NCBI GenBank assembly: GCA_965231035.1
Contig: OZ246409.1
Location: forward strand, 121,101 to 153,100
DNA from: an uncultured Muribaculaceae bacterium
GTDB taxonomy: Bacteria > Pseudomonadota > Alphaproteobacteria > Rs-D84
Length of the DNA stretch: 32,000 nt
Reading direction: 5' to 3'
In this document: one piece after another, positions 5,704 to 32,000 of the stretch
How positions within the stretch are numbered: position 1 is the first letter of the stretch
Layout of the letters: each line of letters opens with the position of its first letter
The notes under the pieces: generated by a model
Database searches by the model: none
Told to the model about the DNA's origin: nothing
What the model saw: the letters and a program-made list of their open reading frames with translations, nothing else
Made by a program: the position numbers and the translations under genes

Positions 5704-5777
5704 GCGGGCGTAGTATAGTGGTAGAATGCTGGCTTCCCAAGCCGAAGGTGAGGGTTCGATTCCCTTCGCCCGCACCA
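5704..5777 (+). tRNA. tRNA-Gly (anticodon CCC), with encoded CCA end
   Basis: The manual cloverleaf has acceptor GCGGGCG/CGCCCGC, D-loop AGTGGTA, anticodon loop TTCCCAA, a 4-nt variable loop, and T-arm GAGGG-TTCGATT-CCCTT. Discriminator A and CCA follow. It closely parallels E. coli tRNA-Gly(CCC). Two non-canonical pairs are present (A12/A23 and C27/A43). Confidence 0.88.
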
Positions 5778-7844: not shown

Positions 7845-8924
7845 ATGAAAAAAATAGGGATTATGACGACTGGCGGCGATTGTTCTGGGCTGAATACGGC
7901 CATTCATCGTGTTGTTATTGGCGCACATCAACGCGGTTGGCAGGTTATTGGCATCCAAGACGGAACAGATGGTTTGACCTATGAAACCCCAAAAGTGATA
8001 AAATTTGATACAAACACATTGCCGATTGAAAATGCAAGATTATCGGGCAGCTTTCTTTGCAATGGTCACAGTGGTGCTGAAAACTTTCAAACTGCTGCAA
8101 AAACCGGCAGCCATGAATTGTTTAATAAGAAAATTAAAAACGCTTTGCGTAAACTGGAATTAGACTCTTTGATTTTGATTGGTGGAAACGGCAGTCTGTC
8201 ACTGGCACATAAGAATCGTGATTTGTATTCTGATGTTTCACTGGTCTGCATTCCAAAAACAATTGATATGGATATTCCAAAAACAGACACAACCATTGGC
8301 TTTTCAACCGCAGTGCAACAGCTGGTTAATTACTGCGATCAATTGCTGTTGACGGCCCGCAGTCATCACAGATGGTTTATTGTTCAAACAATGGGTCGCG
8401 ATTGTGGAAATTTGGCTTTGAATGCTGGTGTTGCGGTTGGTGCAGATGCAATTTTAATTCCAGAAATAAAATTCAACATCGATGAACTGGTAAATCATAT
8501 AAAAAAGCAACCCAGGGATTATGGAATTATTTTGGTATCCGAAGGCATTTCATTACGTGGACATTCTGGCAAGCCCGCTGAAATGGTTTCACGCGCATTG
8601 AACGCTGCTGGGATGGTCAACAGAACAGCATTCCCAGAACATATTCAAAGGGCAGGTGAAACAACCGCAGCCGACCGATTGATTGCTACACAAATGGCAG
8701 ATTGTGCATTGAATGCTATTGAAAACAATGAAACATTTGTTATGACTGCGATGATTGACGGAAAATGTAAAACAATTTCATTGGAAGAATTTTTTAACTC
8801 AGGTGACATTGTATGCGATCCAAATATTCCAAATATGGAAACGTCGGATGCGTATGTATCACCAGAAGACCCGCTGCTGACCATAGCAGAAAATATGGGA
8901 ATTTACATTGGGGAAGTTAAATGA
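7845..8924 (+). CDS. pfkA: 6-phosphofructokinase family protein (ATP- or PPi-dependent; atypical active-site motifs)
   Basis: It contains GIMTTGGDCSGLNTAI, IGGNGS, PKTIDMD, TIGFSTA, MGRDCGNL and HIQRAG, all colinear with E. coli PfkA motifs. I chose the start at ATG 7845, which follows the RBS GAGGA; the track uses TTG 7833. Confidence 0.85.
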   Translation: MKKIGIMTTGGDCSGLNTAIHRVVIGAHQRGWQVIGIQDGTDGLTYETPKVIKFDTNTLPIENARLSGSFLCNGHSGAENFQTAAKTGSHELFNKKIKNALRKLELDSLILIGGNGSLSLAHKNRDLYSDVSLVCIPKTIDMDIPKTDTTIGFSTAVQQLVNYCDQLLLTARSHHRWFIVQTMGRDCGNLALNAGVAVGADAILIPEIKFNIDELVNHIKKQPRDYGIILVSEGISLRGHSGKPAEMVSRALNAAGMVNRTAFPEHIQRAGETTAADRLIATQMADCALNAIENNETFVMTAMIDGKCKTISLEEFFNSGDIVCDPNIPNMETSDAYVSPEDPLLTIAENMGIYIGEVK

Positions 8925-9847
8925 CAGATGTATCAATTTTATATTATTTGCTTTATTTAGGGGCTTTTGCAACAGCAGGCGCAGAAGTTGGAAATTCTAT
9001 AAAAACTTTAAGTCATAAAGTCTCTTCTATGCGAAAAACAAAATTTATTGTTGCAAAAAAGAAAGTTAAATCTCAAAATGATATAGATAAAAACTACACT
9101 TTTGGTTCCTATCTACCAAATAAAAATAAAATATATTTGTACGCATTATATCTAAACCGTGAAATTGCAAAAGAAAATTCTGAATTAAAAAATCAAGTTG
9201 ATGCGCACAATAAACATTTAATTTTTACAAAAATACACGAAAAAAAACATGCTGAAAATTCTAAATATCTAAAAAATATTTACCACTTATCAAAACAAGA
9301 CCGTACTGTTTTAATGATGTTAAATGAAATAAGTGCATATATGTCAACTTATATTCGTATACGAACAAAATTACTAAAATATAAATCAAATAACACAAAA
9401 AAACCGACAATTAATATTAATATTCCAAAAGAAATTTATCCTTTATTAACTGCATATATTTATAATTTGAATAATAATAAAAATTTAGAAATTAATAGAA
9501 TATCATCAGGTGAAGCAACAGTGCTATTTAACATTGCAATTGCACATTTTATGAATGTATTTGATTGTGAATATAAAAAAGATATTTTAAAATTATCTAA
9601 TAATTCAATATCTCCAACATCGTATATGTTAAAGAAATCATTATATAAAAAATATTCCTTTGATGAGATTATAAACGCTTTCTTTACATTTGATATAGAA
9701 GGGCAGGAAATAAATATTTTAAAAAAATTATCTGAATCAAAACGTAATGACTATTTATCACAACTGACAACTATGGCAAAAAGTTTTGGCAAATTCGATA
9801 ATGAGAAAATTGCCATGGAAATTGCTTCAAAAGCTTTAGATTATTGA
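8921..9847 (+). CDS. Hypothetical AT-rich protein with a hydrophobic N-terminus and an HExxH motif
   Basis: The 308-aa ORF has an ATGA overlap with the PFK stop. It is very Lys/Asn/Ile/Tyr-rich. HEKKH lies at 9236-9250. I recognise no family. Confidence 0.5.
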   Translation: MTDVSILYYLLYLGAFATAGAEVGNSIKTLSHKVSSMRKTKFIVAKKKVKSQNDIDKNYTFGSYLPNKNKIYLYALYLNREIAKENSELKNQVDAHNKHLIFTKIHEKKHAENSKYLKNIYHLSKQDRTVLMMLNEISAYMSTYIRIRTKLLKYKSNNTKKPTININIPKEIYPLLTAYIYNLNNNKNLEINRISSGEATVLFNIAIAHFMNVFDCEYKKDILKLSNNSISPTSYMLKKSLYKKYSFDEIINAFFTFDIEGQEINILKKLSESKRNDYLSQLTTMAKSFGKFDNEKIAMEIASKALDY

Positions 9848-9850
9848 ATA

Positions 9851-9876
9851 AAAAATCCGGCTATTGCCGGATTTTT
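9851..9876. terminator. Bidirectional intrinsic terminator between the convergent 308-aa ORF and dnaK
   Basis: The sequence aaaaatccggc-tatt-gccggattttt has A and T runs on either side. Confidence 0.8.
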
Positions 9877-9892
9877 TATTTGATGTCTTTTG

Positions 9893-11782
9893 TTATTTCT
9901 TTTCAGAAAAATCGGCATCTGTTGTTTTATCATCCGCTGGCTTTTCATCTGTTTGTTCTGACGATTGCTGTTGCTGTGCCTTGTAAACTGCTTCGCCCAG
10001 TTTCATTGCTTTTTCGGTCAATGCATCTGTTTTGGTTTTCAAGCTTTCAGCAGTCGCATCAGATTTTGCCAATTCATCTGCCAATTCTTTTTTGGCAGAT
10101 TCAATTGCAGTTTTTTCTTCTTCACTGATTTTATCGCCATATTCTTTCAATGATTTTTCAATTCCGAAAATGGACGCTTCGGCGTTATTTTTTGCCTCGA
10201 CCAATTCGCGTTTTTTCTTATCAGCTTCGGCATTGCGTGCAGCTTCGTCCACCATCTTTTTAATATCTTCTTCGGACAGACCACCATCGGATTTGATTGA
10301 AATCATCTGTTCTTTGCCCGTACCTTTATCCTTAGCTGATACATGCACAATACCGTTCGCATCAATATCAAAAGAAACTTCGATTTGTGGCATACCACGT
10401 GGGGCAGGTGCAATACCTTCCAAATTAAATTGTCCCAACAATTTATTATCAGCCGCCATATCGCGTTCGCCTTGGAACACGCGGATTGTAACCGCATTCT
10501 GATTGTCTTCGGCAGTACTGAACACCTGGGATTTTTTGGTTGGAATTGTTGTGTTGCGATCAATCAAGCGTGTGAATACCCCACCCAATGTTTCAATACC
10601 CAAAGACAAAGGTGTTACATCCAACAACAAAACATCTTTTACATCGCCTTTTAATACACCACCTTGGATTGCAGCACCCAGTCCCACAACTTCGTCTGGA
10701 TTAACACCTTTATGTGGTTCGCGACCAAAGAATTCTTTTACTACTTCAATAACCTTTGGCATACGTGTTTGACCACCAACCAAGATTACTTCGTTAATTT
10801 TTGATTTATCCAAACCAGCGTCTTTCAAAGCTTTGCGGCAAGGTTCAATAGTTTTTTCAATCAAGTCTGCAACCAGTGATTCCAGCTTTGCACGTGTCAA
10901 AGTAGTATTAAAGTGAACCGGGCCAGATGCGTTTGCTGTCAAATAAGGCAGGTTGATATCTGTGCTGGTCTTAGACGACAATTCAATTTTTGCCTTTTCA
11001 GCAGCTTCTTTCAAACGTTGCAATGCCAATTTATCCGAAGATAAATCAATTCCCTTATCTGATTTAAATTCAGAAATCAAATGATTCAAAATTCGTGCGT
11101 CAAAATCTGAACCACCCAAAGCAGTATCACCGTTTGTTGATTTTACTTCGAATACACCATCAACGATTTCCAAAATAGAAATATCAAATGTACCACCACC
11201 CAAATCGTAAACAGCAACAACGCCATTTTTGTTTTTATCCAAACCATATGCCAATGCAGCAGCTGTTGGTTCATTAACAATACGCAAAACATTCAATCCT
11301 GCGATACGGCCAGCGTCTTTGGTTGCCTGACGTTGAGAATCATTAAAATAAGCGGGAACAGTGATAACTGCGTCTGTAACTTTTTCACCCAAATAGTTTT
11401 CTGCATCCTTTTTCAGTTTTGCTAAAATCATAGCAGAAATTTGCGAAGGTGCATATTTTTTGCCATCAATTTCAACCCAAGCGTCACCGTTGTCGCCAGG
11501 AATAATTTTATAAGGTACACGACCCGCAATTTCGCGTACAGAAGAGCTGTCGAAGCGTAAACCCATCAAACGTTTGATTTCGTAAACTGTGTTTTCAGGA
11601 TTAGTTACAGCCTGGTTTTTGGCAGTAATACCAACTAACTGTTCGTTTCCACCAGTAATTGCAACCACAGATGGTGTTGTGCGTTGACCCTCTGCATTTT
11701 CAATAATTTTCGGGTCAGAACCATCCATAAATGCCATTGCGGAATTTGTAGTTCCTAAATCAATACCCAATACTTTTGCCAT
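9893..11782 (-). CDS. dnaK: Molecular chaperone DnaK (Hsp70)
   Basis: The 629-aa ORF contains [28 protein letters not shown] and [17 protein letters not shown]. It looks like an alpha/mitochondrial-type sequence. Confidence 0.97.
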
Positions 11783-15288: not shown

Positions 15289-15702
15289 ATGAGTGGAAAG
15301 GTTTTTATACCCACATCTATAGACGAACATATCGGACAACGTATGCAATTGCGCCGCAACATGATGGGACTTTCTCAGAAAGACCTGGCGCAGATATGCG
15401 GTGTTACATTTCAACAAATTCAAAAATACGAAGCTGCTGAAAATAGAATCTCGGCATCGCGACTGTTTGATGTCAGTGCAGCTTTGGAAACTCCTGTCTC
15501 TTTTTTCTTTTCTGGACTGCCAGGGAATATGCCTGAAGAAACACGAACGAACAGGTCTATGCGTATTTCAGAACAAAAGAAAGAAGACCCGTTGGGCAAA
15601 AATGAATCCTTGTTATTGATAAATTTATATTGGAAACTGCCGAACGATGATCAAAGAAAAATCGTTATGAAAATGTTAAAAAGTTTGAACGGTACAGAAT
15701 AA
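15289..15702 (+). CDS. XRE-family helix-turn-helix transcriptional regulator
   Basis: The 137-aa ORF has the HTH region LRRNMMGLSQKDLAQICGVTFQQIQKYEAAENRISASRL. A strong RBS, AAGGAGAGG, lies 6 nt upstream of the ATG. Confidence 0.88.
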   Translation: MSGKVFIPTSIDEHIGQRMQLRRNMMGLSQKDLAQICGVTFQQIQKYEAAENRISASRLFDVSAALETPVSFFFSGLPGNMPEETRTNRSMRISEQKKEDPLGKNESLLLINLYWKLPNDDQRKIVMKMLKSLNGTE

Positions 15703-15716
15703 AAAAATAATTAAAT

Positions 15717-15749
15717 AAAAAAAGACCCAAAATTGGGTCTTTTTTTTTA
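15717..15749. terminator. Bidirectional intrinsic terminator (XRE gene on +, Cys-rich operon on -)
   Basis: The sequence aaaaaaagaccc-aaaatt-gggtcttttttttt has long A and T runs on both sides. Confidence 0.8.
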
Positions 15750-16991
15750 TTCTAAAGGATTCAAAACTTGAAGTTTTAACTTTTCTTTATCAGACTTAAC
15801 AACAGCTGTAGTTATACCCGTTGTTGTATCAATTGTTGTAGCTGTTGTCAAAGTATCTGAACCTAAGGTACATTTTTTATAATCCGATGGATTTACCAAA
15901 ATCCAACATTGCTTAGTCAAATCAGACACTGTATTTTTTGTTTTACTTTTACCATATTGTAAGTCTACTTTAGTATATGCTGATGCAGTTTTACAAGAAC
16001 TTGTAACTTTATCAAAATATTGCCCCGTTTGACACTGAACACATAACCCGTTAATCTTGCTTACACCACCTTTGATACTGACACTGCAATCTACACAAGA
16101 ATAATCATTTAATTTTGCAAAAGCTTTTGTTGCATCTGTACAGAAAAACTTAGCACATCCAGACGATTGTTCTAAAGAATGTATAGCACTGCTGTAACCA
16201 GTCTTTGCAAAACCATCACAAAACTTAGTATTCTGTGTAGCACAAATATCTTCGCTTATTGCAATACAATCTGTACTATCAGAATTAGCTTTATATCCAT
16301 TTGCGCACAAAAGCTTCTGTGTTCCAGCAACAGTTCCAACCGCAGAAACATATGAATGCGCAGAATCCCAACCGGATCTTCCACAAGTTACCTTGACAGG
16401 TCCAACAACAACTCCATGCTGTCCAAATTTTAAAATCCCAAGCAAAACATCTGATTCAGGATCATCACCAAATTGATCAAATCCAGAAACTTCACTTTCT
16501 TTTCCATTTGAACTACCACCAGACGTCTTAAGGCTTAATCCACCAAATTTTTGGCCAGCTGATATTCCATAAATCTTTGTATCACAAACAGACGGGCTGG
16601 TACTTTGTGACAAACAATTCATACCTCCATATCCAGGTTCACATATCCAGGAACACCCTACGGTGCCAGATCCATTTGGATAATAATAATTAGTCCAAGA
16701 ATGTCTTTTTCTATTAGTGTTTTCACATTGAATTTGGTACGGGCAAAAATATCCACCATGTTCAACTATCTTCTGTGCAACCATTCCAGCAATAGCCCAT
16801 TCATCATCAAAAGTACCGTGTATACCACCCATACCAAGAGATCCTGCAATCATAAAATCACCCGCAGAACCGTTAGAATCACGGCTGCTGTATCCCCACC
16901 AACTGCGCGCACCAGACAAGACATTTATTGCGTTTGCAGGTAATGCAAAAGTCAAAGATGTTAATAAAATTACAATCAGTTTGTTTTTCAT
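15747..16991 (-). CDS. Secreted cysteine-rich protein (414 aa, 20 Cys), unknown family, with an EGF-like half-signature
   Basis: I moved the start to the ATG at 16991 (MKNKLIVILLTSLTFALPANA signal peptide), because the track start overlaps the upstream gene. It contains CSWICEPGYGGMNC and CVDCSVSIKGGVSKINGLCVQCQTGQYFDKVTSSC. The C-terminal tail is Thr-rich. Confidence 0.75.
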   Translation of the reverse strand: MKNKLIVILLTSLTFALPANAINVLSGARSWWGYSSRDSNGSAGDFMIAGSLGMGGIHGTFDDEWAIAGMVAQKIVEHGGYFCPYQIQCENTNRKRHSWTNYYYPNGSGTVGCSWICEPGYGGMNCLSQSTSPSVCDTKIYGISAGQKFGGLSLKTSGGSSNGKESEVSGFDQFGDDPESDVLLGILKFGQHGVVVGPVKVTCGRSGWDSAHSYVSAVGTVAGTQKLLCANGYKANSDSTDCIAISEDICATQNTKFCDGFAKTGYSSAIHSLEQSSGCAKFFCTDATKAFAKLNDYSCVDCSVSIKGGVSKINGLCVQCQTGQYFDKVTSSCKTASAYTKVDLQYGKSKTKNTVSDLTKQCWILVNPSDYKKCTLGSDTLTTATTIDTTTGITTAVVKSDKEKLKLQVLNPLE

Positions 16992-17002
16992 TTCTTTATC
17001 TT

Positions 17003-19255
17003 TTACTGTATCACATAGCAAACGCCGTTTTCGTAATAACCATTTCCTAATAAAGTACATTTTGATTCATACCAGCTGTCAACAAATACACATTCATCTT
17101 TAGCTTGATCATATGTTGCGACAACAGCACTATCTGTATTATTTGCTAAACAACGAACCATGACATCATTTTGAACACAGCGACCCCAATCATTATTACC
17201 ATTATTACCACCATAAACATTGCTGTAGAAAGATTTTAACGGTGTTCCATTGCTGTTATCTGAATTTTGCCAGAATCCATCCAGATCTTCACATATTGTT
17301 GACATTTGATAATCCAACTGTTCAGCAATATCACTTATTATCTTGTCTCTTACTTCTCCTACAAGATTTTCATCAAATTCTTTGGTTGTTGGATCAGCAC
17401 AATAAGTGTTCGCACGGGTATTAAGAATATCTTTTAGTTCTGATTTTGTCCTGGTGCGGCAAGAATAAGGATACTTTTGATCCCCAGCAGTAGGAGTACA
17501 AACATCTTTGATATAATTTGTAAGAGAAGTTTCACAACCTTCGGCAACTTTGACATTGTCAACCGTGCCGACAAAAGTTAACAAGGCTGTTAAACCACAC
17601 TGAGTATTTTTTAATTTGCCATTGCTATCAAATTCACATTTTACATCATTAGGACCAGCATAAAGCGCAGCACACGCCGCAACCTTGTCCGCACACATTG
17701 TCCGTGCAGCATAGGCATTCAAAGCACCTGTGGCCTGTGCACTTGTGGTATCAAAGCTTGCCAATGCACCAGATTGAGTATCATAACACGCCTTCATTGT
17801 GCTAACACAACTATTCTTTACTTCCTCGATTTTCGTATCTTGGGCTTGTGCAATTTCAATCATCGCACTGCGCTTAAATTCATCCCAAACTACTGTCGCT
17901 TTGTCACTACAAGTATCTAAAGCCTTTTGTGCAAACATTTTTTTATCATCCAAGAATTTACTAAATTTCGGATTTGCAGATACAACATCACCGCTTTTTA
18001 TATTCAAATTTAAAATATTGCTTAGTTCAAACAACTGTGGTGAATATATAGGGTCCCCAGTATTAACATTTATATAACTGCCGGTATAATCCAAACATTT
18101 TTTATAATTTGCACCGCAAGCTGTATCAGCAGTAATTGTCGTTTTTACATTTGTTATACATGAATTAACATCTGCAGAATTCTTGGAACGATATTCCTCT
18201 AATCTTGCTTCACGCAAAATCTTTTCTGCTTCGTTTACTGTTTTTTGGACAGCTTGCTTCTGGGTATCTATATTTTTTTTGTAAGCATTACAGTCCTGGG
18301 TAATCAGAATACCATAAGAACTTTTTGCCATTGTTGTAACAGCGTTATTTTCACAAGAATCTTTTACCAACTGCAAACATTGTTTGTCAGCAGCCGAATA
18401 CAATTCTGCACCTTCTAAAGAGCTAAGATCTTGTGCAGATCCTGAACCGAACACAGAGCCAGAATTATTATCGCCCCAAATATTGCCAATATCAGAACTG
18501 AAATCCAAAGAAGCTGTTGACAATTTAGTTGTGGTTTTTGCCTTTTTATTACCAGATAACAAATCTCCTATTTCTGATAACACACTTGCAGCGGCACTGG
18601 TATCATTTTTTATAGCTTCTTCACCAACAGTTGCAGAATACATAGCATTAACTTCGGCTGCAGTTTTATCAATTGCATTCAAGTTATTATCTTGGAATTG
18701 CATCAACAATGTTTTTGCCTGGGTCAGGGCAGATTCAGTATCACGAAATTCGGATATCTTTGCATTACAATAACAACGACGATAAGTATCATTTGATTTT
18801 GCACAGAATTGATCCATACAGGTATTATAAGCCTCGCGACAAGAGGCATAACCACCACCAATTTTTGAAACATCGTCATAAATCGCTGTTGCACGCGAAG
18901 CTGCGGCACGTGAAACGGTTCCCGATTGTATAGAAGCGGACCTTGAATTCAAAGGAGTTACCGTAGAACGAATAGTTGCAGATCTTGAAACAATGCTGTC
19001 TGATCTATTACCAACAACTACATTTTGTCTTGCAGCAGCCCTGGTTGTCACAACACCTTGCAGAGCACCCCTGGATACAGTCGAACGTCTGACGATTTCT
19101 TTTGAATTATCGCCACGTTGGGAAACAGTTACTGAATTATTAAACCCACCTGAACGTGGATTTGGTGCTTGGGTTGCAAAAGAGCCGCCATTAAAGCAGG
19201 TTACAAAAGTAGCAAATGTAAGATATCCTACAAAATTAGACAGTTTTATTTTCAA
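17003..19255 (-). CDS. Secreted cysteine-rich protein (750 aa, 28 Cys in the mature chain), unknown family
   Basis: It has a TTG start (19255-19253) after AGGAAAGAG, and there is no in-frame ATG nearby. The signal peptide is KIKLSNFVGYLTFATFVTCFNGGSFA. An Arg/Ser/Thr/Val-rich segment of about 95 aa follows, then Cys-rich helical-looking regions (CREAYNTCMDQFC...RRCYC). Confidence 0.75.
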   Translation of the reverse strand: MKIKLSNFVGYLTFATFVTCFNGGSFATQAPNPRSGGFNNSVTVSQRGDNSKEIVRRSTVSRGALQGVVTTRAAARQNVVVGNRSDSIVSRSATIRSTVTPLNSRSASIQSGTVSRAAASRATAIYDDVSKIGGGYASCREAYNTCMDQFCAKSNDTYRRCYCNAKISEFRDTESALTQAKTLLMQFQDNNLNAIDKTAAEVNAMYSATVGEEAIKNDTSAAASVLSEIGDLLSGNKKAKTTTKLSTASLDFSSDIGNIWGDNNSGSVFGSGSAQDLSSLEGAELYSAADKQCLQLVKDSCENNAVTTMAKSSYGILITQDCNAYKKNIDTQKQAVQKTVNEAEKILREARLEEYRSKNSADVNSCITNVKTTITADTACGANYKKCLDYTGSYINVNTGDPIYSPQLFELSNILNLNIKSGDVVSANPKFSKFLDDKKMFAQKALDTCSDKATVVWDEFKRSAMIEIAQAQDTKIEEVKNSCVSTMKACYDTQSGALASFDTTSAQATGALNAYAARTMCADKVAACAALYAGPNDVKCEFDSNGKLKNTQCGLTALLTFVGTVDNVKVAEGCETSLTNYIKDVCTPTAGDQKYPYSCRTRTKSELKDILNTRANTYCADPTTKEFDENLVGEVRDKIISDIAEQLDYQMSTICEDLDGFWQNSDNSNGTPLKSFYSNVYGGNNGNNDWGRCVQNDVMVRCLANNTDSAVVATYDQAKDECVFVDSWYESKCTLLGNGYYENGVCYVIQ

Positions 19256-19276
19256 AACTTTACTCTTTCCTGCTTT

Positions 19277-19306
19277 ATTTTATCATTTTTGTTTGTAGTC
19301 AATCAA
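19277..19306 (-). promoter_or_regulatory. Candidate promoter of the Cys-rich two-gene operon
   Basis: On the minus strand there is TTGATT (19306-19301), an 18-nt spacer, and an extended -10, TGaTAAAAT (-10 at 19282-19277). Confidence 0.5.
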
Positions 19307-19314
19307 TACCAAAT

Positions 19315-19896
19315 TTACTCGATACAACAATTTACAGCATTTTTAACCCATTCGCCCAAACGCTTTACCGTAGATTTATGTTCTGTGCCAACTGATTTTT
19401 CAGATTTATCTGATTTTTCTTGGTTGTTCAAAGCAACTCCACAAACCTCTGGTTCTATTTTTTTAACACCTGCAACATTTATCAAATCCATGTTTATTCC
19501 CCAAAACAGAGAATACAAATCGTATGCTTTATTAAACAATTCATAAGCATCTTCTTTTTTACCAGCTGCATTTGCTTTGGTTCCAACTTCCATCAATCTC
19601 ATAGATGCGGCCAAAAGGTGTTTGGAAATACACCAAACTTCACCAGTTTCCGCTGTTGATTTTTTAACAATGCGTTCCATCAATTCCTTACGCATATCAC
19701 GAACAGTGTTAATCAAATCGTAAAATCCAGTTTTTCCTGTCTTTCCACCACTGAAAAAGAAATGTTCTTCCAACGAAATCAAATTCATTAACGCAATTGA
19801 TAAATCCTGATCAGAAGATAAATCCAGCGGATTCGCTTTTTTGGCGGTATCCATTTTTTTAATCATTTCTTCCATTGATAATTTTTTTTCTGTCAT
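19315..19896 (-). CDS. Hypothetical cytoplasmic-looking protein (193 aa) ending in CCIE
   Basis: The ORF has no signal peptide. The segments DLSIALMNLISLEEHFFF and EVWCISKHLLAASMRLMEVG look conserved, but I cannot name a family. It sits 15 nt downstream of the CXXC membrane protein gene. Confidence 0.6.
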   Translation of the reverse strand: MTEKKLSMEEMIKKMDTAKKANPLDLSSDQDLSIALMNLISLEEHFFFSGGKTGKTGFYDLINTVRDMRKELMERIVKKSTAETGEVWCISKHLLAASMRLMEVGTKANAAGKKEDAYELFNKAYDLYSLFWGINMDLINVAGVKKIEPEVCGVALNNQEKSDKSEKSVGTEHKSTVKRLGEWVKNAVNCCIE

Positions 19897-19911: not shown

Positions 19912-20412
19912 TTACAAATAAATTATTGCTGAGAATATCGCAGTTGCGACCAACAAAAACGACAATGGCACAATAACTTTTTGAAATGCAAATTTTGCAT
20001 GACCATCATTGTTTTTCTTTATTTTAGCATACCAGCGAGCCCCAAAATAAAAAGCAACAGTGCCAACAATTGTTCCCAACATAAACTTATCCATACCCCA
20101 CAATCTGTTTGCTCCAAATTTAATACCTGGCATCAAGTAAACCCCCGCCAGTAAAACATAATAAAAAACAAAAGGAACAATGATTTGCCACAACACGCTG
20201 TTTACACCACGTTTTTTTAACCATCCTGCGGTCCAAAAGAATACAGAAAGCATCAAACCACCCGCCCAAATTCCAGTGATTACATCATCAACACCAATCA
20301 GTCTGGCACCTTCCAATCCTGCACCAACTGCAACTGTGCAAACTGGGCAAACCGCATATGCCGCAGGTATAAATAACAAAGCACAAACAATAAATAACAA
20401 ATATTTTCTCAT
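19912..20412 (-). CDS. Polytopic membrane protein with an N-terminal CPVC (CXXC) motif
   Basis: The 166-aa ORF has a signal-like N-terminus, MRKYLLFIVCALLFIPAAYA, followed immediately by VCPVCTVAVGAG (motif at 20338-20349). About four further hydrophobic helices follow. Confidence 0.65.
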   Translation of the reverse strand: MRKYLLFIVCALLFIPAAYAVCPVCTVAVGAGLEGARLIGVDDVITGIWAGGLMLSVFFWTAGWLKKRGVNSVLWQIIVPFVFYYVLLAGVYLMPGIKFGANRLWGMDKFMLGTIVGTVAFYFGARWYAKIKKNNDGHAKFAFQKVIVPLSFLLVATAIFSAIIYL

Positions 20413-27732: not shown

Positions 27733-30327
27733 TTACATACTGTCATCAACTATGGAATAATTTGTACCACCATAGTTTGCTTTTAATAACCCTTTGTTAT
27801 CTGTGGTCATATTTCCGTAATAAGTTGAACCGCTTAATTGTATAAACAATGAAGGACTGGTCTTTTTAACGCTGCGAAGATAAACTTTGCTGCCACTGAC
27901 ATTAAATACTTTTCCACAATCACCGACCTCGTCTGCACCAGCACCATAACCAATTGTAGTCAGACCAGAAGTGCAGGCTGTTCTGGTACTGGAATTATTT
28001 GCAGACCAATAACCTGATCCAACTTCTGTGCATTGACCACCTGAAATATAATACCCACCAGAACAACCATTGATTGAACATAAATTAGTAACCGTATTAT
28101 TTGTATTCCACGTCGCAGTTACCCAAGAAGTATCATAAACACCATCGTTTGAACAAGCTGTACCGCATGATGTCATTCCTGAACTGGCCGTGGTTGTTCC
28201 ATTCTGACACGCAATACAAGCCGAAGCACCAGTCGCACTGTACGAACCCACTACACATTCCGTACATGCAGTTGCACCAGAAGTTGAATATGTTCCACCC
28301 AGGCATTGGCTGATTGAACCAGTGCTGCCATAATTTATTAATGCAACTGGACAATATGATCCAGCAGTGCAGTTTGTCTGGGTTGATGAATTTGCTGTTG
28401 CAATATATTGTCCAGCGGTGGTTTGTATCTGACATTGTGTATTAGCAGTTTTTCCAGCATCTGTGTTCGCAGTATAAGAACCTGGGCAGGTGGTACAACT
28501 GGATGCACCAGACCCAGAATATGTAGCACCAGTACATTGAGTTATAGATCCAGTGCTGCCATATGTAATCAATGCGGCTGGACAATAAGAGCCAGCTGTA
28601 CAAGTTGTCTGTGTTGATGAATTTGCTGTTGCTATATACTGACCAGCAGTAGTTTGTAATGCACATTGATTCTGTGTCGACAAACCGGTTCCACCATTTA
28701 CATAATTTGTGGGGCATGATGTCCTGGTGCCGGTACTTCCATAGTTTATCAACGCAACTGGGCAATAATAAGTAGCAGGGCAGGTTGTTTGTGTTGATGA
28801 ATTTGCAGCCGCAATATAAGTTCCACCAGCTGTTTGTATCTGACATTGATTTTGTGCTGTTTTACCAGCTGTCGTATTTGCAGTATAAGATCCAGGACAA
28901 GTAGTACAACTGGATGCACCTGCACCAGAATAAGTCGCACCAGTACATTGCGTTATGGATCCTATGCTGCCGTAACCAACTAATGCGGCTGGGCAATACG
29001 ACCCAGCTGTGCATGCTGTCTGAGTTGTTGCATTCGCAGTTGCAATATATTGGCCAGCTGTGGTTTGAAATTTACAATCTGACTGAACTGTTAATCCTGT
29101 TCCGCCAGATCTATAACTGGCCGGGCATAAAGTTCTGGTTCCCGTACTTCCATAGTTTATTAATGCAGCTGGGCAATAATAAGTAGCAGTGCAGGTTGTT
29201 TGGGTTGATGAATTTGCTGTTGCTATATAAGTTCCACCAGCTGTTTGTATCTGACATTGATTTTGTGCTGTTTTACCAGCTGTCGTATTTGCCGTATAAG
29301 ATCCAGGGCAAGTAGTACAACTGGATGCCCCCGTACCAGACCATGTTGCCCCAGTACACTGTGTTATTGAACCAGTGCTGCCATAATTAATATATTCTGA
29401 AACACAATAACTACCGGCCGGACATGTTGTTGCCGTGGTATCATAAGCATTGGCAACATATTCCCCATCATATGTCCACATCTGGCATTGATCTTGCGAG
29501 GAAGCCCCCATATCACCATCTGTATAACCACTTGGACAAGATATTCTTGATCCTGTGCTGCCATAATTAATCAATGCCGCAGGGCAATAATACCCATAAC
29601 TGCAACTACTTTGTGTTGAAGAATTTGCGGTTGCAATATAACTGCCAGCGGTTGTTTGCAACTTACATTGGTTTTGTGCTGATAATCCAGTTCCACCATC
29701 ATCATAATTTGTTGGACAAGTATTTCTTGTTCCAGTACTTCCATAACTGATTAAAGCAGCTGGACAATAATATCCTGATGGACAAGTTGTCATACTGGTG
29801 TCATTTGCTGTTGCTATATAATTTCCAGCCGTAGCTTGTATTTGGCATTGTGTTATTGCAGTTTTTCCAGATGTTGTATTTGCCGTGTATCCATCAGGAC
29901 AATCAGTGCAACTGGATGCACCAGAAGCAGAATAAGTTGCACCTGTACATTGTGTTCTGTTGCCAGTGCTGCCATATGTAATTAATGCAGCCGTACAATA
30001 ATAACCAGCAGTACAAGTCGTTTTTATAGTAGAATAAGCAGTTGCAATATATGTACCATCTGTAGTTTGTATTGGGCACTGATTTCGTGCGGTTAATCCA
30101 GTATCACCAGATCTATAACCTGTTGGACACAATGTGCGTCCATAATTTACTGCGGGGTTATTTCTTGTAAAGCCAGTGCAATAATAGGTTGCAGTACATG
30201 TTGTGCAAGCTGAACCATTCCAATAAGTTCCAGCTGAACATGTTACTTTGGCGGCAAAAGCATCGTTTGCAAATGTGACTGCAAACACACAAAAAAAGAC
30301 CCGCAGAAAAATTCTGAGTTTTTTCAA
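27733..30327 (-). CDS. Exported cysteine-rich modular repeat protein (864 aa) with ephrin-receptor-like / GCC2-GCC3-like Cys spacing
   Basis: It has a TTG start (30327-30325) 5 nt after AAGGGGAG. The signal peptide is KKLRIFLRVFFCVFAVTFANDAFA. Nine modules of about 60 aa follow, four of them with a 17-aa prefix, and then a 190-aa C-terminal domain. I count about 60 Cys in the mature chain. Confidence 0.85.
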   Translation of the reverse strand: MKKLRIFLRVFFCVFAVTFANDAFAAKVTCSAGTYWNGSACTTCTATYYCTGFTRNNPAVNYGRTLCPTGYRSGDTGLTARNQCPIQTTDGTYIATAYSTIKTTCTAGYYCTAALITYGSTGNRTQCTGATYSASGASSCTDCPDGYTANTTSGKTAITQCQIQATAGNYIATANDTSMTTCPSGYYCPAALISYGSTGTRNTCPTNYDDGGTGLSAQNQCKLQTTAGSYIATANSSTQSSCSYGYYCPAALINYGSTGSRISCPSGYTDGDMGASSQDQCQMWTYDGEYVANAYDTTATTCPAGSYCVSEYINYGSTGSITQCTGATWSGTGASSCTTCPGSYTANTTAGKTAQNQCQIQTAGGTYIATANSSTQTTCTATYYCPAALINYGSTGTRTLCPASYRSGGTGLTVQSDCKFQTTAGQYIATANATTQTACTAGSYCPAALVGYGSIGSITQCTGATYSGAGASSCTTCPGSYTANTTAGKTAQNQCQIQTAGGTYIAAANSSTQTTCPATYYCPVALINYGSTGTRTSCPTNYVNGGTGLSTQNQCALQTTAGQYIATANSSTQTTCTAGSYCPAALITYGSTGSITQCTGATYSGSGASSCTTCPGSYTANTDAGKTANTQCQIQTTAGQYIATANSSTQTNCTAGSYCPVALINYGSTGSISQCLGGTYSTSGATACTECVVGSYSATGASACIACQNGTTTASSGMTSCGTACSNDGVYDTSWVTATWNTNNTVTNLCSINGCSGGYYISGGQCTEVGSGYWSANNSSTRTACTSGLTTIGYGAGADEVGDCGKVFNVSGSKVYLRSVKKTSPSLFIQLSGSTYYGNMTTDNKGLLKANYGGTNYSIVDDSM
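28306..30129 (-). repeat. In-frame tandem repeat array of alternating 60-aa and 77-aa modules, including a 411-bp super-repeat
   Basis: The module boundaries were derived by hand: aa 67-126, 127-203, 204-263, 264-323, 324-400, 401-460, 461-537, 538-597 and 598-674. DNA at 28814-28881 is identical to 29225-29292. Confidence 0.9.
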
Positions 30328-30395: not shown

Positions 30396-32000
30396 TTACA
30401 TATTATCGTCATAAACTGAATATTGGGTACCTTGTGAATTAACACGTAAAGACCCCTTGGTATCAGTTGTCATATTTCCATAATAACTTGTGCCATCAAC
30501 TTTTACATTTAACGATGGTGTGGTTTTTTTATCGCTACGAAGATAAACTTTTTCATCGTTAACATGTAATAATTTTCCACAATCTCCAGATTCATCTGCG
30601 CCCAAACCATAACCAATTGTCATAGTACCAGCAGGACATGCTGTTCTGGTAATTGAATCATTTGCAGACCAATAACCAGTTCCAACATCCACACAAGATC
30701 CATCAGATAAATAATACCCACCTTGACATCCACCAACTGTACACAAACCAGTTACAGTATTATCACTGTTCCAAACGGCTGTTGACCAAGAACTTTGATA
30801 TTCGCCGCCACCAGCAGAACATGCAGCGTCACAGAAAGACAAGCCAGGCACACTGGTTGTTGTTCCATCCTGACAAGCTGAGCAATAACCAGATGCAGCT
30901 GTGCTGTATGAACCAATTGTGCAGTTTGTACAAGTTGATGCCCCTATATCTGCATAGGTTCCAGCCAAGCATTCAAACAATGGTCCAGTGCTGCCATAGC
31001 TTACAAGTGTAGAAGGACAATAGTGTCCCGCAGTGCAAGTTGTTGCCGTTGTATCATTTGCCGTGGCAATATAAGTACCTGCCGTAGTCTGCCATTTACA
31101 TCCTGTTTGTGCGGTTACGCCAGTTCCACCATCATCGTAATTGATTGGACATTCAGTTCTTGTTCCAGTGCTGCCATAATTAACCAACGAAGCAAGACAA
31201 TAATACCCAGCAGTACATTTTGATTGTGTCGTTGTGTTAGCTGTTGCTATAAATCTTCCAGCTGTCGTTTGAATCTGACATTGAGTATTTGCAGTTTTAC
31301 CCGGGTCTGTGTTTGCGGTATATCCACCAGGGCAAGATGTACAACTGCTTTGACCCGACCCAGACCACAATGTGCCTGTACATTGTATAATTGAACCGGT
31401 ACTACCATATGTGACCAAAGCAGTTGGACAATAGCTGCCAGCAATACAATCAACTTGTGTTGTAGAATATGGGGTGTCAATATATTTACCACCAGTTGTT
31501 TGCAATGCACACTGATTTTCTGAATAAAGACTCGTACCGCCAGCTGTGTAACCTGTTGGACAAGCTATCAAAGATCCTGTGTCACCGTAAGTAACCAATG
31601 TGGACGGACAATAATATCCTGATAAACATCGATTCTGAGAAGTGGAATTAGCGGTTGGAATGTAGAAACCTGAACTTGTTAAAATTTTACACTGGTTTTG
31701 TGCAGAAAGCCCCGTGCCACCATTTACATAATTTGTTGGACATGCAACCTGGGGTCCTGTGCTACTCCATCCCACCAGACCACCGGGACAATATGTTCCA
31801 GCGGCACAAATTGTTTCAGTTGTAGCATTTGATGTCGCAATATAATATCCGGCCGTTGCTTGAAATTTACATCCGCTTTTTGATGTTACGCCTGTACCAC
31901 CTTTATCATAATTAGTTGGACAAACAGTTATAGATCCGGTGCTGCCATAATTTATTGATGCAGAGTCACAATAGTATCCAGATTCACAAGTTGTTAATGT
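30396..32000 (-). CDS. Paralogous cysteine-rich modular repeat protein; N-terminal part lies beyond the window edge
   Basis: The track ORF start at 31775 is an internal GTG. My translation shows the frame stays open to position 32000 (TLTTCESGYYCDSASINYGSTGSITVCPTNYDKGGTG...). It has the same module types and the same C-terminal domain as 27733-30327. Confidence 0.85.
   Translation of the reverse strand, partial: TLTTCESGYYCDSASINYGSTGSITVCPTNYDKGGTGVTSKSGCKFQATAGYYIATSNATTETICAAGTYCPGGLVGWSSTGPQVACPTNYVNGGTGLSAQNQCKILTSSGFYIPTANSTSQNRCLSGYYCPSTLVTYGDTGSLIACPTGYTAGGTSLYSENQCALQTTGGKYIDTPYSTTQVDCIAGSYCPTALVTYGSTGSIIQCTGTLWSGSGQSSCTSCPGGYTANTDPGKTANTQCQIQTTAGRFIATANTTTQSKCTAGYYCLASLVNYGSTGTRTECPINYDDGGTGVTAQTGCKWQTTAGTYIATANDTTATTCTAGHYCPSTLVSYGSTGPLFECLAGTYADIGASTCTNCTIGSYSTAASGYCSACQDGTTTSVPGLSFCDAACSAGGGEYQSSWSTAVWNSDNTVTGLCTVGGCQGGYYLSDGSCVDVGTGYWSANDSITRTACPAGTMTIGYGLGADESGDCGKLLHVNDEKVYLRSDKKTTPSLNVKVDGTSYYGNMTTDTKGSLRVNSQGTQYSVYDDNM
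30972..32000 (-). repeat. Module array of the second paralog (at least five full modules plus one partial, one with the prefix)
   Basis: The same CP.xY...GTG...C..QTTAG.YIATAN......C.AG.YCP..L..YGSTG consensus is present. It is more diverged from the first gene than the internal repeats of that gene are from each other. Confidence 0.85.

Follow-up and report, generated by a model that had tools for sequence, protein, structure and literature searches.

The stretch of DNA analysed here, a window of 32,000 nucleotides from contig OZ246409.1, is ordinary chromosome carrying tsaD, trmD, rimM, rpsP, rplS, pfk, dnaK, rplY, iPGM, rsmH, dnaE and secA. On its reverse strand, between the gene for a protein we call p193 and a convergent helix-turn-helix (HTH) gene, lie two genes, here named A and B, which encode exported cysteine-rich proteins and are the subject of this report (Table 1). 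An earlier note, made from the letters of the window alone, had described the pair as a separately promoted operon for secreted proteins of unknown family, and the comparative analysis shows all its factual statements to be correct and supports its interpretation. What it missed is that A belongs to a multi-paralog family, that B is dispensable in some lineages and that the likeness to repeat proteins encoded further along the window is limited to a short Cys-hairpin motif. An 849-kb JGI contig encodes a protein that matches A at 100% identity, and B is identical to an NCBI protein from a metagenome-assembled genome (MAG) labelled Alphaproteobacteria bacterium.

Table 1. Features of the A-B unit and of the two genes upstream of it, in window positions (aa, amino acids; AF2, AlphaFold2)
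Feature	Position	Strand	Description
Bidirectional intrinsic terminator	15717..15746	.	13-bp stem flanked by A-run and T-run, common to B and the convergent HTH gene
Gene B	15747..16991	-	414-aa exported Cys-rich protein; ATG start 11 nt past the A stop
B C-terminal helices (aa 336-379), then disordered Thr-rich tail (aa 380-414)	15750..15986	-	From the AF2 model
B Cys-closed hairpin modules, aa 229-335	15987..16307	-	For example CANGYKANSDSTDC and CQTGQYFDKVTSSC
B N-terminal beta-rich domain, aa 22-228	16308..16928	-	Long antiparallel hairpins, VEHGGYFCPYQxQC motif, EGF-like insert at about C113-C126
B signal peptide, aa 1-21	16929..16991	-	Predicted cleavage ...LPANA/INV
A-B spacer, 11 nt	16992..17002	-	Neither promoter nor terminator inside
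Gene A	17003..19255	-	750-aa exported Cys-rich protein; TTG start
A C-terminal region, aa 536-750	17006..17650	-	Alpha/beta, 12 Cys, ends in Cys-closed hairpin CTLLGNGYYENGVC
A core, aa 126-535	17651..18880	-	All-helical, 16 Cys, opens with CxxxYxxCMDQFC...RRCxC
A polycationic disordered tail, aa 28-125	18881..19174	-	Recurring ARSAT / VSRAA-like motifs
A signal peptide, aa 1-27	19175..19255	-	Predicted cleavage ...GGSFA/TQAPNPR; no lipobox
5' leader	19256..19276	-	Shine-Dalgarno-like GGAAAGAG at 19270-19263, then TTG start
Sigma-70-type promoter, extended -10	19277..19306	-	TTGATT, N15, TGATAAAAT (TTGATT-18-TAAAAT with TG); predicted 5' end near 19270
p193	19315-19896	-	193 aa, no signal peptide, ~70% identity across the order
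p166	19912-20412	-	166-aa polytopic membrane protein, ~4-5 hydrophobic segments

Judged from the window sequence alone the promoter is not significant: the pattern TTGATT-N15-TGATAAAAT has a single match across the 32 kb, at least one match appears in 23-30% of shuffled sequences, 9 of the 12 hexamer positions agree, and promoter-like sites number 30 against 20.7 expected. The matter is settled by conservation. When 80 related loci from GTDB species genomes were compared, 79 of them usable, TTGAYW-N17-19-TAnnnT was found directly upstream of the A orthologue in 77, against a background of 0.03 per 270 nt, and in 76 of those 77 the -35 element reads TTGATT and the 18-nt spacer ends in TG. The strict extended -10 pattern occurs at the same position in 75 of the 79, so that depending on stringency the element is kept in 75-77 of them, and it is found upstream of secA, dnaE, rsmH, p166, p193, B, the HTH gene and iPGM in at most one locus each. 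The leader is likewise conserved, at about 27-28 nt, with AGAGAG 5-10 nt before the A start in 74 of 77 loci. The start codon in relatives is TTG in 56 cases, GTG in 15 and ATG in 5, and with a non-ATG codon in 71 of the 76 loci, the order as a whole keeps a weak start for A. Because the -35 and extended -10 elements, their spacing and the leader are all conserved across the order, phylogenetic footprinting makes a separately promoted two-gene operon A-B well supported, with transcription probably starting near 19270.

The layout that the earlier note had given, of two genes 11 nt apart closed by a strong bidirectional terminator, is confirmed. The terminator is a perfect 13-bp hairpin with 4 GC pairs directly past the B stop, scored on both strands, and a comparable hairpin with T-run lies 3' of B in 45 of 64 related loci. 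The A-B gap in relatives is mostly ~3-28 nt, and the negative gaps seen there are an artefact of over-extended open reading frame (ORF) starts. Co-transcription of B with A would follow from the short gap, from the finding of no conserved promoter of B's own in the related loci and from the shared terminator. This architecture is in itself ordinary.

Throughout the 82 related loci collected for the comparison of synteny, the order secA-dnaE-rsmH-p166-p193-A-B-(HTH, opposite strand)-iPGM is essentially kept, the family as a whole being found in 273 GTDB species genomes. Whether the pair is syntenic in relatives, a check that the earlier note had proposed, can accordingly be answered in the affirmative: A is present in 82/82 of the loci, B in 67/82, p193 in 68/82 and p166 in 53/82. 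Median identity to the window falls from 83% for secA and 77% for dnaE to 65% for rsmH, 51% for A and 34% for B. Furthermore, in at least 8 loci A runs up to the HTH gene so closely that B would not fit between them, which is why B can be called dispensable in some lineages, and on these sequence comparisons B is an accessory component that evolves faster than A and is sometimes lost.

Protein A is the larger and the more conserved of the two. Its signal peptide, by inspection of the sequence, reads MKIKLSNFVGYLTFATFVTCFNGGSFA followed by TQ, and the FA-x-QAPNPR junction is conserved among A homologues, with N32, P33 and R34 at least 90% invariant and QAPNPR as a whole nearly invariant. The basic and probably disordered segment described in the earlier note is borne out, since residues 28-125, in which S, R, A, V and T predominate, have an isoelectric point (pI) of 12, the remainder of A having a pI of 4.7, and since the AF2 model gives a predicted local distance difference test score (pLDDT) below 50 over residues 16-134. 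In 104 homologues the tail is made up of 20% A, 16% S, 13% T, 12% R and 11% V with a mean net charge of +12.7; it is the composition that is conserved and not the sequence, and the paralogs carry an equivalent T/A/R-rich tail. The long helical stretches predicted to follow the basic segment are likewise found in the model as a core of long helices with pLDDT mostly 50-85, and residues 570-750 form an alpha/beta domain at pLDDT 81-90. The core is the most conserved part of the protein, at 72-85% column identity, and over residues 101-600 column identity is highest, at 65-85%, both ends being lower. At least 1194 homologues, all unnamed, are contained in a set of 5.8 billion proteins, and they reduce to 825 representatives at 50% identity.

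For B, 57 homologues are detectable. The predicted signal peptide, MKNKLIVILLTSLTFALPANA followed by IN, contains the only hydrophobic 19-mer in the protein and agrees with the homologue consensus AxA before IN. A 437-aa version of B starting at position 17060 within A was also considered and rejected, the longer start being unsupported because every homologue opens at the MKK... signal peptide. The AF2 model of B is confident (mean pLDDT 87.8, predicted template modelling score, pTM, 0.74), with the exception of the tail 380-414, which has pLDDT below 50 and is not conserved. The VEHGGYFCPYQxQC motif is conserved, and according to the model B is rich in beta structure and carries EGF/furin-like Cys hairpins. 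It represents a new family with a confident model and no match among solved structures.

Both proteins carry conserved signal peptides of the signal peptidase I (SPase-I) type, which by inspection have neither lipobox nor twin-arginine motif, and no further hydrophobic segment is found in mature A or B; A and B should therefore be soluble proteins exported through Sec, as the earlier note had proposed. The cysteine counts it gave, 28 for mature A and 20 for mature B, also hold, and both are even. In the alignments 26 of the 28 are invariant in A and the other 2 at least 90% conserved, and 18 of the 20 are invariant in B. That 15 core cysteines of the A family are invariant while almost nothing else is constitutes the pattern expected from structural disulfides, and the conserved cysteines of both proteins may be disulfide-bonded.

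The A family comprises several clades, which we refer to as A-type, P0300-type and P0236/P0239-type. The P0300-type proteins have 900-1176 aa and up to 42 Cys, and they share with A the cationic tail and the core, at 28% identity and with all 16 core Cys aligned; their C-terminus is unrelated to that of A, and the paralogs in general exchange the A C-terminal region for unrelated sequence. A-type and P0300-type are paralogs because one MAG assembly, JAGBGA01, carries both (loci L021 and L087). The P0300-type gene is always found divergent beside genes for a Pom-porin, a DUF3078-like outer-membrane protein (OMP) and other exported proteins, and near A2M/PBP1C. The P0236-type adjoins infA together with two very distant family members (E 1e-13 to 1e-25 against the A profile). 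Every paralog cluster has a median of 16 core Cys, and down to 18% identity 15 of these never change and one is conserved at 90% or more, whereas hardly any other residue is invariant. A is the core member of this lineage-restricted multi-paralog family. No extra paralog of A or B was found in the window or in the flanks of the first 82 related loci.

Several further observations belong to the paralog loci. In L083, L084, L086 and L087 an exported protein of 205-213 aa is also encoded beside the P0300-type paralog, and the paralog loci hold more Cys-rich exported proteins, for example one of 407 aa with 27 Cys and one of 328 aa with 28 Cys. In L088 (2655-10793) and L089 (1588-11432), which come from another lineage (contigs of the JGI samples 3300042612 and 3300027984), infA and secG are surrounded by a cluster of three family members, one of 930-1143 aa with 53-70 Cys and two very distant ones of 673-881 aa with 36-37 Cys; a conserved exported protein of 245-252 aa with 10 Cys lies downstream, and ankyrin-repeat genes are nearby.

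The homologues of A and B are labelled uncultured Alphaproteobacteria, Rickettsiales or Ca. Enterousia, bar a few mislabelled bins, and the relatives were sampled from human, ruminant, horse, chicken and other guts. Some public records with clear orthologues and full Rs-D84 synteny (L077, L013; P0071, P0114) are labelled Bacteroides fragilis, Muribaculaceae or Lachnospiraceae, most likely because the source assemblies were wrongly binned or labelled. The host is an uncultured reduced-genome alphaproteobacterium related to Ca. Enterousia, in the GTDB order Rs-D84. Members of this lineage are widespread in the guts of humans, ruminants, horses and birds, have genomes of less than 1 Mb and are unable to synthesise their own amino acids, nucleotides and lipids (PMC12306168). 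They are reported to retain rod-shape and peptidoglycan genes, and such metabolically deficient bacteria are thought to depend on a partner organism. The A family is diagnostic of this uncultured, host-dependent order.

The description of the two products as proteins of unknown family, for which the earlier note had recommended profile searches and structure prediction, stands against everything searched. The window's A and B match 0 Pfam families at E up to 0.1, and Pfam, NCBIfam, PHROGs and PADLOC return nothing at curated thresholds, PADLOC giving no match at all and PHROGs a single one of unknown function at E 0.003. Among homologues, 14 of 57 for B match cEGF (PF12662) with a best E of 0.003, all under the Pfam gathering threshold and the window's B not among them, and 1 of 61 for A matches Ephrin_CRD at E 0.015, likewise under the Pfam threshold. 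Sequence-profile searches of the PDB with A, B and the superfamily profiles found nothing, and Foldseek against PDB and BFVD found nothing significant for either protein, the best PDB match of B, at a weak E of 0.14, being to the Cys-rich domains of mGluR/CaSR, with TNFR-like domains also weakly matched. These weak matches concern the hairpin modules of B at aa 229-335, whereas its N-terminal beta-rich domain has no counterpart of similar fold in PDB or BFVD. In the literature only genome-level accounts of the lineage were found, and no description of A or B. We conclude that A and B are two undescribed protein families to which no described family or solved fold is matched. Furthermore, tblastn against plasmid and phage collections gave no match, which excludes an origin from the mobile elements within those collections.

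The earlier note had also remarked that the end of A echoes the repeat proteins at 27.7-32 kb. These are two highly repetitive exported proteins of 864 aa (27733-30327) and 459 aa (30396-31775) on the same strand, with 61 and 30 Cys. The echo is real as far as a short Cys-hairpin motif is concerned, since C-x-(x)-G-G-Y-Y-x4-C takes the form CTLLGNGYYENGVC at the end of A and the forms CSGGYYISGGQC and CQGGYYLSDGSC in the 864-aa and the 459-aa protein respectively, and hairpins of the wider form C-x2-3-G-[YF]-[YF]-x4-6-C occur at the A C-terminus, several times in B and in both repeat proteins. It does not however extend to homology, because hhalign of A with B or with the 864-aa protein gave only a signal-peptide match or a 40-residue match of low probability, and homology of A to either was rejected; at the level of sequence the resemblance is a motif-level echo. 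As for the repeat proteins themselves, both have sub-threshold ephrin-receptor-like matches (PF07699) and a common C-terminal region, ...GYGAGADE.GDCGK...YDD.M. The gene for the 864-aa protein (start 30327) is preceded by a promoter-like TTGCGA-N18-TAGAAT and a Shine-Dalgarno sequence AAGGGGAG, and its TTG start falls directly at the signal peptide. Homologues are recognisable in only 9 of 82 loci, from which it follows that these proteins diverge or are replaced much more rapidly than A and B.

Upstream of A, p193 always lies directly before the A promoter, its stop ~8-12 nt from the -35 element; the motif PLDLSSDQDL is invariant in it, and CC-I-E stands at the C-terminal end. In p166 a CPVC motif follows right after the first hydrophobic segment (VCPVCTVAVGAG) and is 100% invariant in 52 sequences. 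This membrane protein may serve the Cys-rich secretome as a thiol-disulfide oxidoreductase. Neither protein belongs to any family in Pfam, NCBIfam, PHROGs or PADLOC, and neither has a PDB sequence match. Generic sigma-70-like sites are common upstream of p166 (49/52) and of iPGM (51/59), and not upstream of p193, rsmH or B, a distribution that suggests the transcription units [dnaE-rsmH], [p166-p193] and [A-B].

On the other side of the operon, the HTH gene (15289-15702, forward strand) encodes a 137-aa XRE-family protein and is present in 63 of 82 loci at a median identity of 74%; no conserved operator-like repeat is evident between the -35 and -10 elements of the A promoter. Elsewhere in the window the sole RNA gene detected by Rfam and ARAGORN is a tRNA-Gly(CCC) at 5704-5777 (forward strand). 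At 8921-9847 (forward strand) lies a Lys/Asn-rich ORF of 308 aa without any family, lying in the lowest-GC part of the window (9001-10000; 25% against ~37%), and in one related locus (L001) the slot between pfk and dnaK holds an unannotated gene of similar size.

What A and B do can at present be approached from their architecture and genomic context. The reading that we prefer, tentatively and at somewhat less than even odds, is that they form part of the cell envelope or of a contact surface, with A as scaffold and B as accessory. After Sec export both proteins would fold oxidatively into disulfide-stapled, protease-resistant envelope or surface modules. A would be the rigid scaffold, and its cationic tail (~+13) may tether it electrostatically to an anionic polymer, be it peptidoglycan, the outer-membrane surface or the surface of a partner cell, while B, translated from the same transcript, would be an accessory subunit for binding that varies between lineages, and the unit would probably serve envelope integrity or contact with the partner organism. 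A link of the A family to the envelope is suggested by the P0300-type paralog, because it sits by the genes for the Pom-porin, the DUF3078-like OMP and A2M/PBP1C. The A-B unit takes up ~0.4% of the genome (~3.6 kb of the 849-kb contig), and this share, together with a strong promoter of its own that is conserved over hundreds of species and an exported multi-paralog family, makes it a prime candidate for the lineage's envelope or contact apparatus.

Several points weigh against such a role. The AF2 model of A is only moderate overall (pLDDT 62.5, pTM 0.35), and no secretion system beyond Sec is seen in the window. The lineage is reported to be strictly anaerobic and without respiratory chains, and oxidative folding is non-trivial in such an organism. 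A physical A-B complex has no evidence beyond the putative co-transcription: a mirror-tree analysis controlled for dnaE distance gave a partial r of 0.23, which is uninformative since it is no higher than for unrelated neighbours, and no Rosetta-stone protein joining A to B turned up, the C-terminal extensions of the paralogs and their downstream genes being unrelated to the B profile. Finally, a median identity of 51% is high for a host-selected adhesin and favours a housekeeping role for A.

This last point leads to an alternative that we consider unlikely yet deserving of weight, namely that A and its paralogs are soluble periplasmic housekeeping factors and not a surface structure at all, with B as a lineage-variable cofactor. 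They might be an envelope-biogenesis chaperone or scaffold, a tether between outer membrane and peptidoglycan that replaces Lpp/Pal, or a carrier of lipids or metabolites scavenged from a partner. A is near-universal, single-copy and syntenic amid housekeeping genes at ~51% identity, its paralog lies beside OMP, PBP1C and A2M genes, the lineage is without lipid synthesis, the cationic tail could bind peptidoglycan, and with no dedicated secretion system nearby export would by default stop at the periplasm. However, none of the known folds of periplasmic chaperones, tethers or lipid-transfer proteins is similar, the combination of several paralogs with a variable C-terminal domain is seen more often in surface proteins, and EGF/furin-like hairpins are mostly found in extracellular binding proteins. 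Were A and B nevertheless ordinary periplasmic factors of this kind, they would still provide two new Pfam domain families and a marker gene set for the order.

It is also conceivable, if rather improbable, that A and B are part of a larger module with p166 and p193, in which p166 would be the dedicated oxidoreductase for A, B and other Cys-rich exported proteins and read-through from upstream would add to transcription. The order rsmH-p166-p193-A-B on one strand is conserved, the CPVC motif does not vary, no terminator is found between p193 and A, and several very Cys-rich exported proteins are encoded in the genome. The idea is weakened by the fact that p166 is absent from Enterousia-type loci, in which A keeps all 28 Cys, and furthermore A has its own strongly conserved promoter, and p166, with only two conserved Cys, matches no Dsb, VKOR or CcdA family.

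A role as secreted effectors or toxins against a eukaryotic host or protist, with EGF/furin-type modules mimicking host ligands or receptors, has little probability. It draws on the sub-threshold cEGF and ephrin-receptor-like signals in B and the neighbouring repeat proteins, on the weak Foldseek matches to mGluR, CaSR and TNFR Cys-rich domains, on the host association of the lineage and on the ankyrin-repeat genes near the distant paralog cluster. All such matches are however below significance, A is without such modules except for its one terminal hairpin, no secretion system, immunity or chaperone gene or mobile-element context is found, and strong conservation with fixed synteny is unlike effector repertoires. 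An equally slight chance attaches to the idea that the conserved cysteines are ligands of metals or cofactors (Zn, Fe-S or another redox centre) in exported metallo- or redox proteins, since, even if periplasmic disulfides are unexpected in a strict anaerobe without respiratory chains and A has clustered motifs such as Cx6Cx4Cx9CxC, the export signals are of the Sec type and have no twin-arginine motif, the spacing fits no Fe-S or zinc-finger Pfam model above noise, the cysteines are spread over 600 residues and even in number, and GYY-type Cys-closed hairpins are classic disulfide modules.

If A and B are indeed envelope or surface components, a bolder version of that reading may be put forward, which we regard as doubtful: that the A paralogs, B and other Cys-rich exported proteins build an undescribed disulfide-cross-linked envelope layer or attachment structure, a hallmark of Rs-D84/Enterousia, that mediates obligate contact with the partner cell. 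Were this true, the structure would be comparable in function to the chlamydial Cys-rich outer-membrane complex and built on a new all-helical 16-Cys fold, and an oxidative folding route so far unrecognised would have to operate in a strict anaerobe that lacks quinones, perhaps with the CPVC protein p166 taking part. In any case the question is raised of how a strict anaerobe without respiratory quinones folds proteins with 20-28 Cys, and in the paralogs up to 70.

Comparison with known systems yields analogies of graded closeness. The Cys-closed hairpins of A, B and the repeat proteins resemble the short disulfide-type hairpins of EGF/cEGF, ephrin-receptor-like, furin-, TNFR- and VSP-like modules, but all matches to these are under Pfam gathering scores and neither the A core nor the B beta-domain has a counterpart there. 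The variant surface glycoprotein (VSG) of trypanosomes offers a structural analogy, in that it too is multi-paralog, with a long helical scaffold, stapled by conserved disulfides in VSG and putatively so in A, and a small Cys-rich C-terminal domain; the organisms are however unrelated, there is no sequence or Foldseek similarity, and A is highly conserved and syntenic where VSG is antigenically variable. TraN of F-like conjugation is a Cys-rich outer-membrane mating-pair adhesin with ~22 conserved Cys and is, like A and B, a large exported Cys-rich bacterial protein, its role being in cell-cell contact. Its fold content is different, A and B have no TraN Pfam domain, and their neighbours are housekeeping genes with no type IV secretion system or plasmid context. 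TraN and VSG are both looser analogies than the omcAB operon of chlamydiae, which encodes two exported Cys-rich envelope proteins of the outer-membrane complex: OmcB, a beta-rich protein whose basic N-terminal segment binds glycosaminoglycan, and OmcA, a lipoprotein. Every test of membership is negative here too, as there is no relation in sequence or fold and no Pfam or NCBIfam match, A is all-helical, A and B are not lipoproteins by their signal peptides, and peptidoglycan and rod-shape genes are reported to be retained in their lineage. In organisation alone, omcAB nonetheless appears to be the closest functional analogy to A and B, since in each case one operon of two genes encodes a pair of exported and very Cys-rich proteins in a host-dependent small-genome bacterium, in both the larger protein has a basic N-terminal segment and disulfide cross-linking is presumed to confer rigidity, and a paralog of A adjoins the gene for a porin of the Pom family, itself named after outer-membrane proteins of Protochlamydia.

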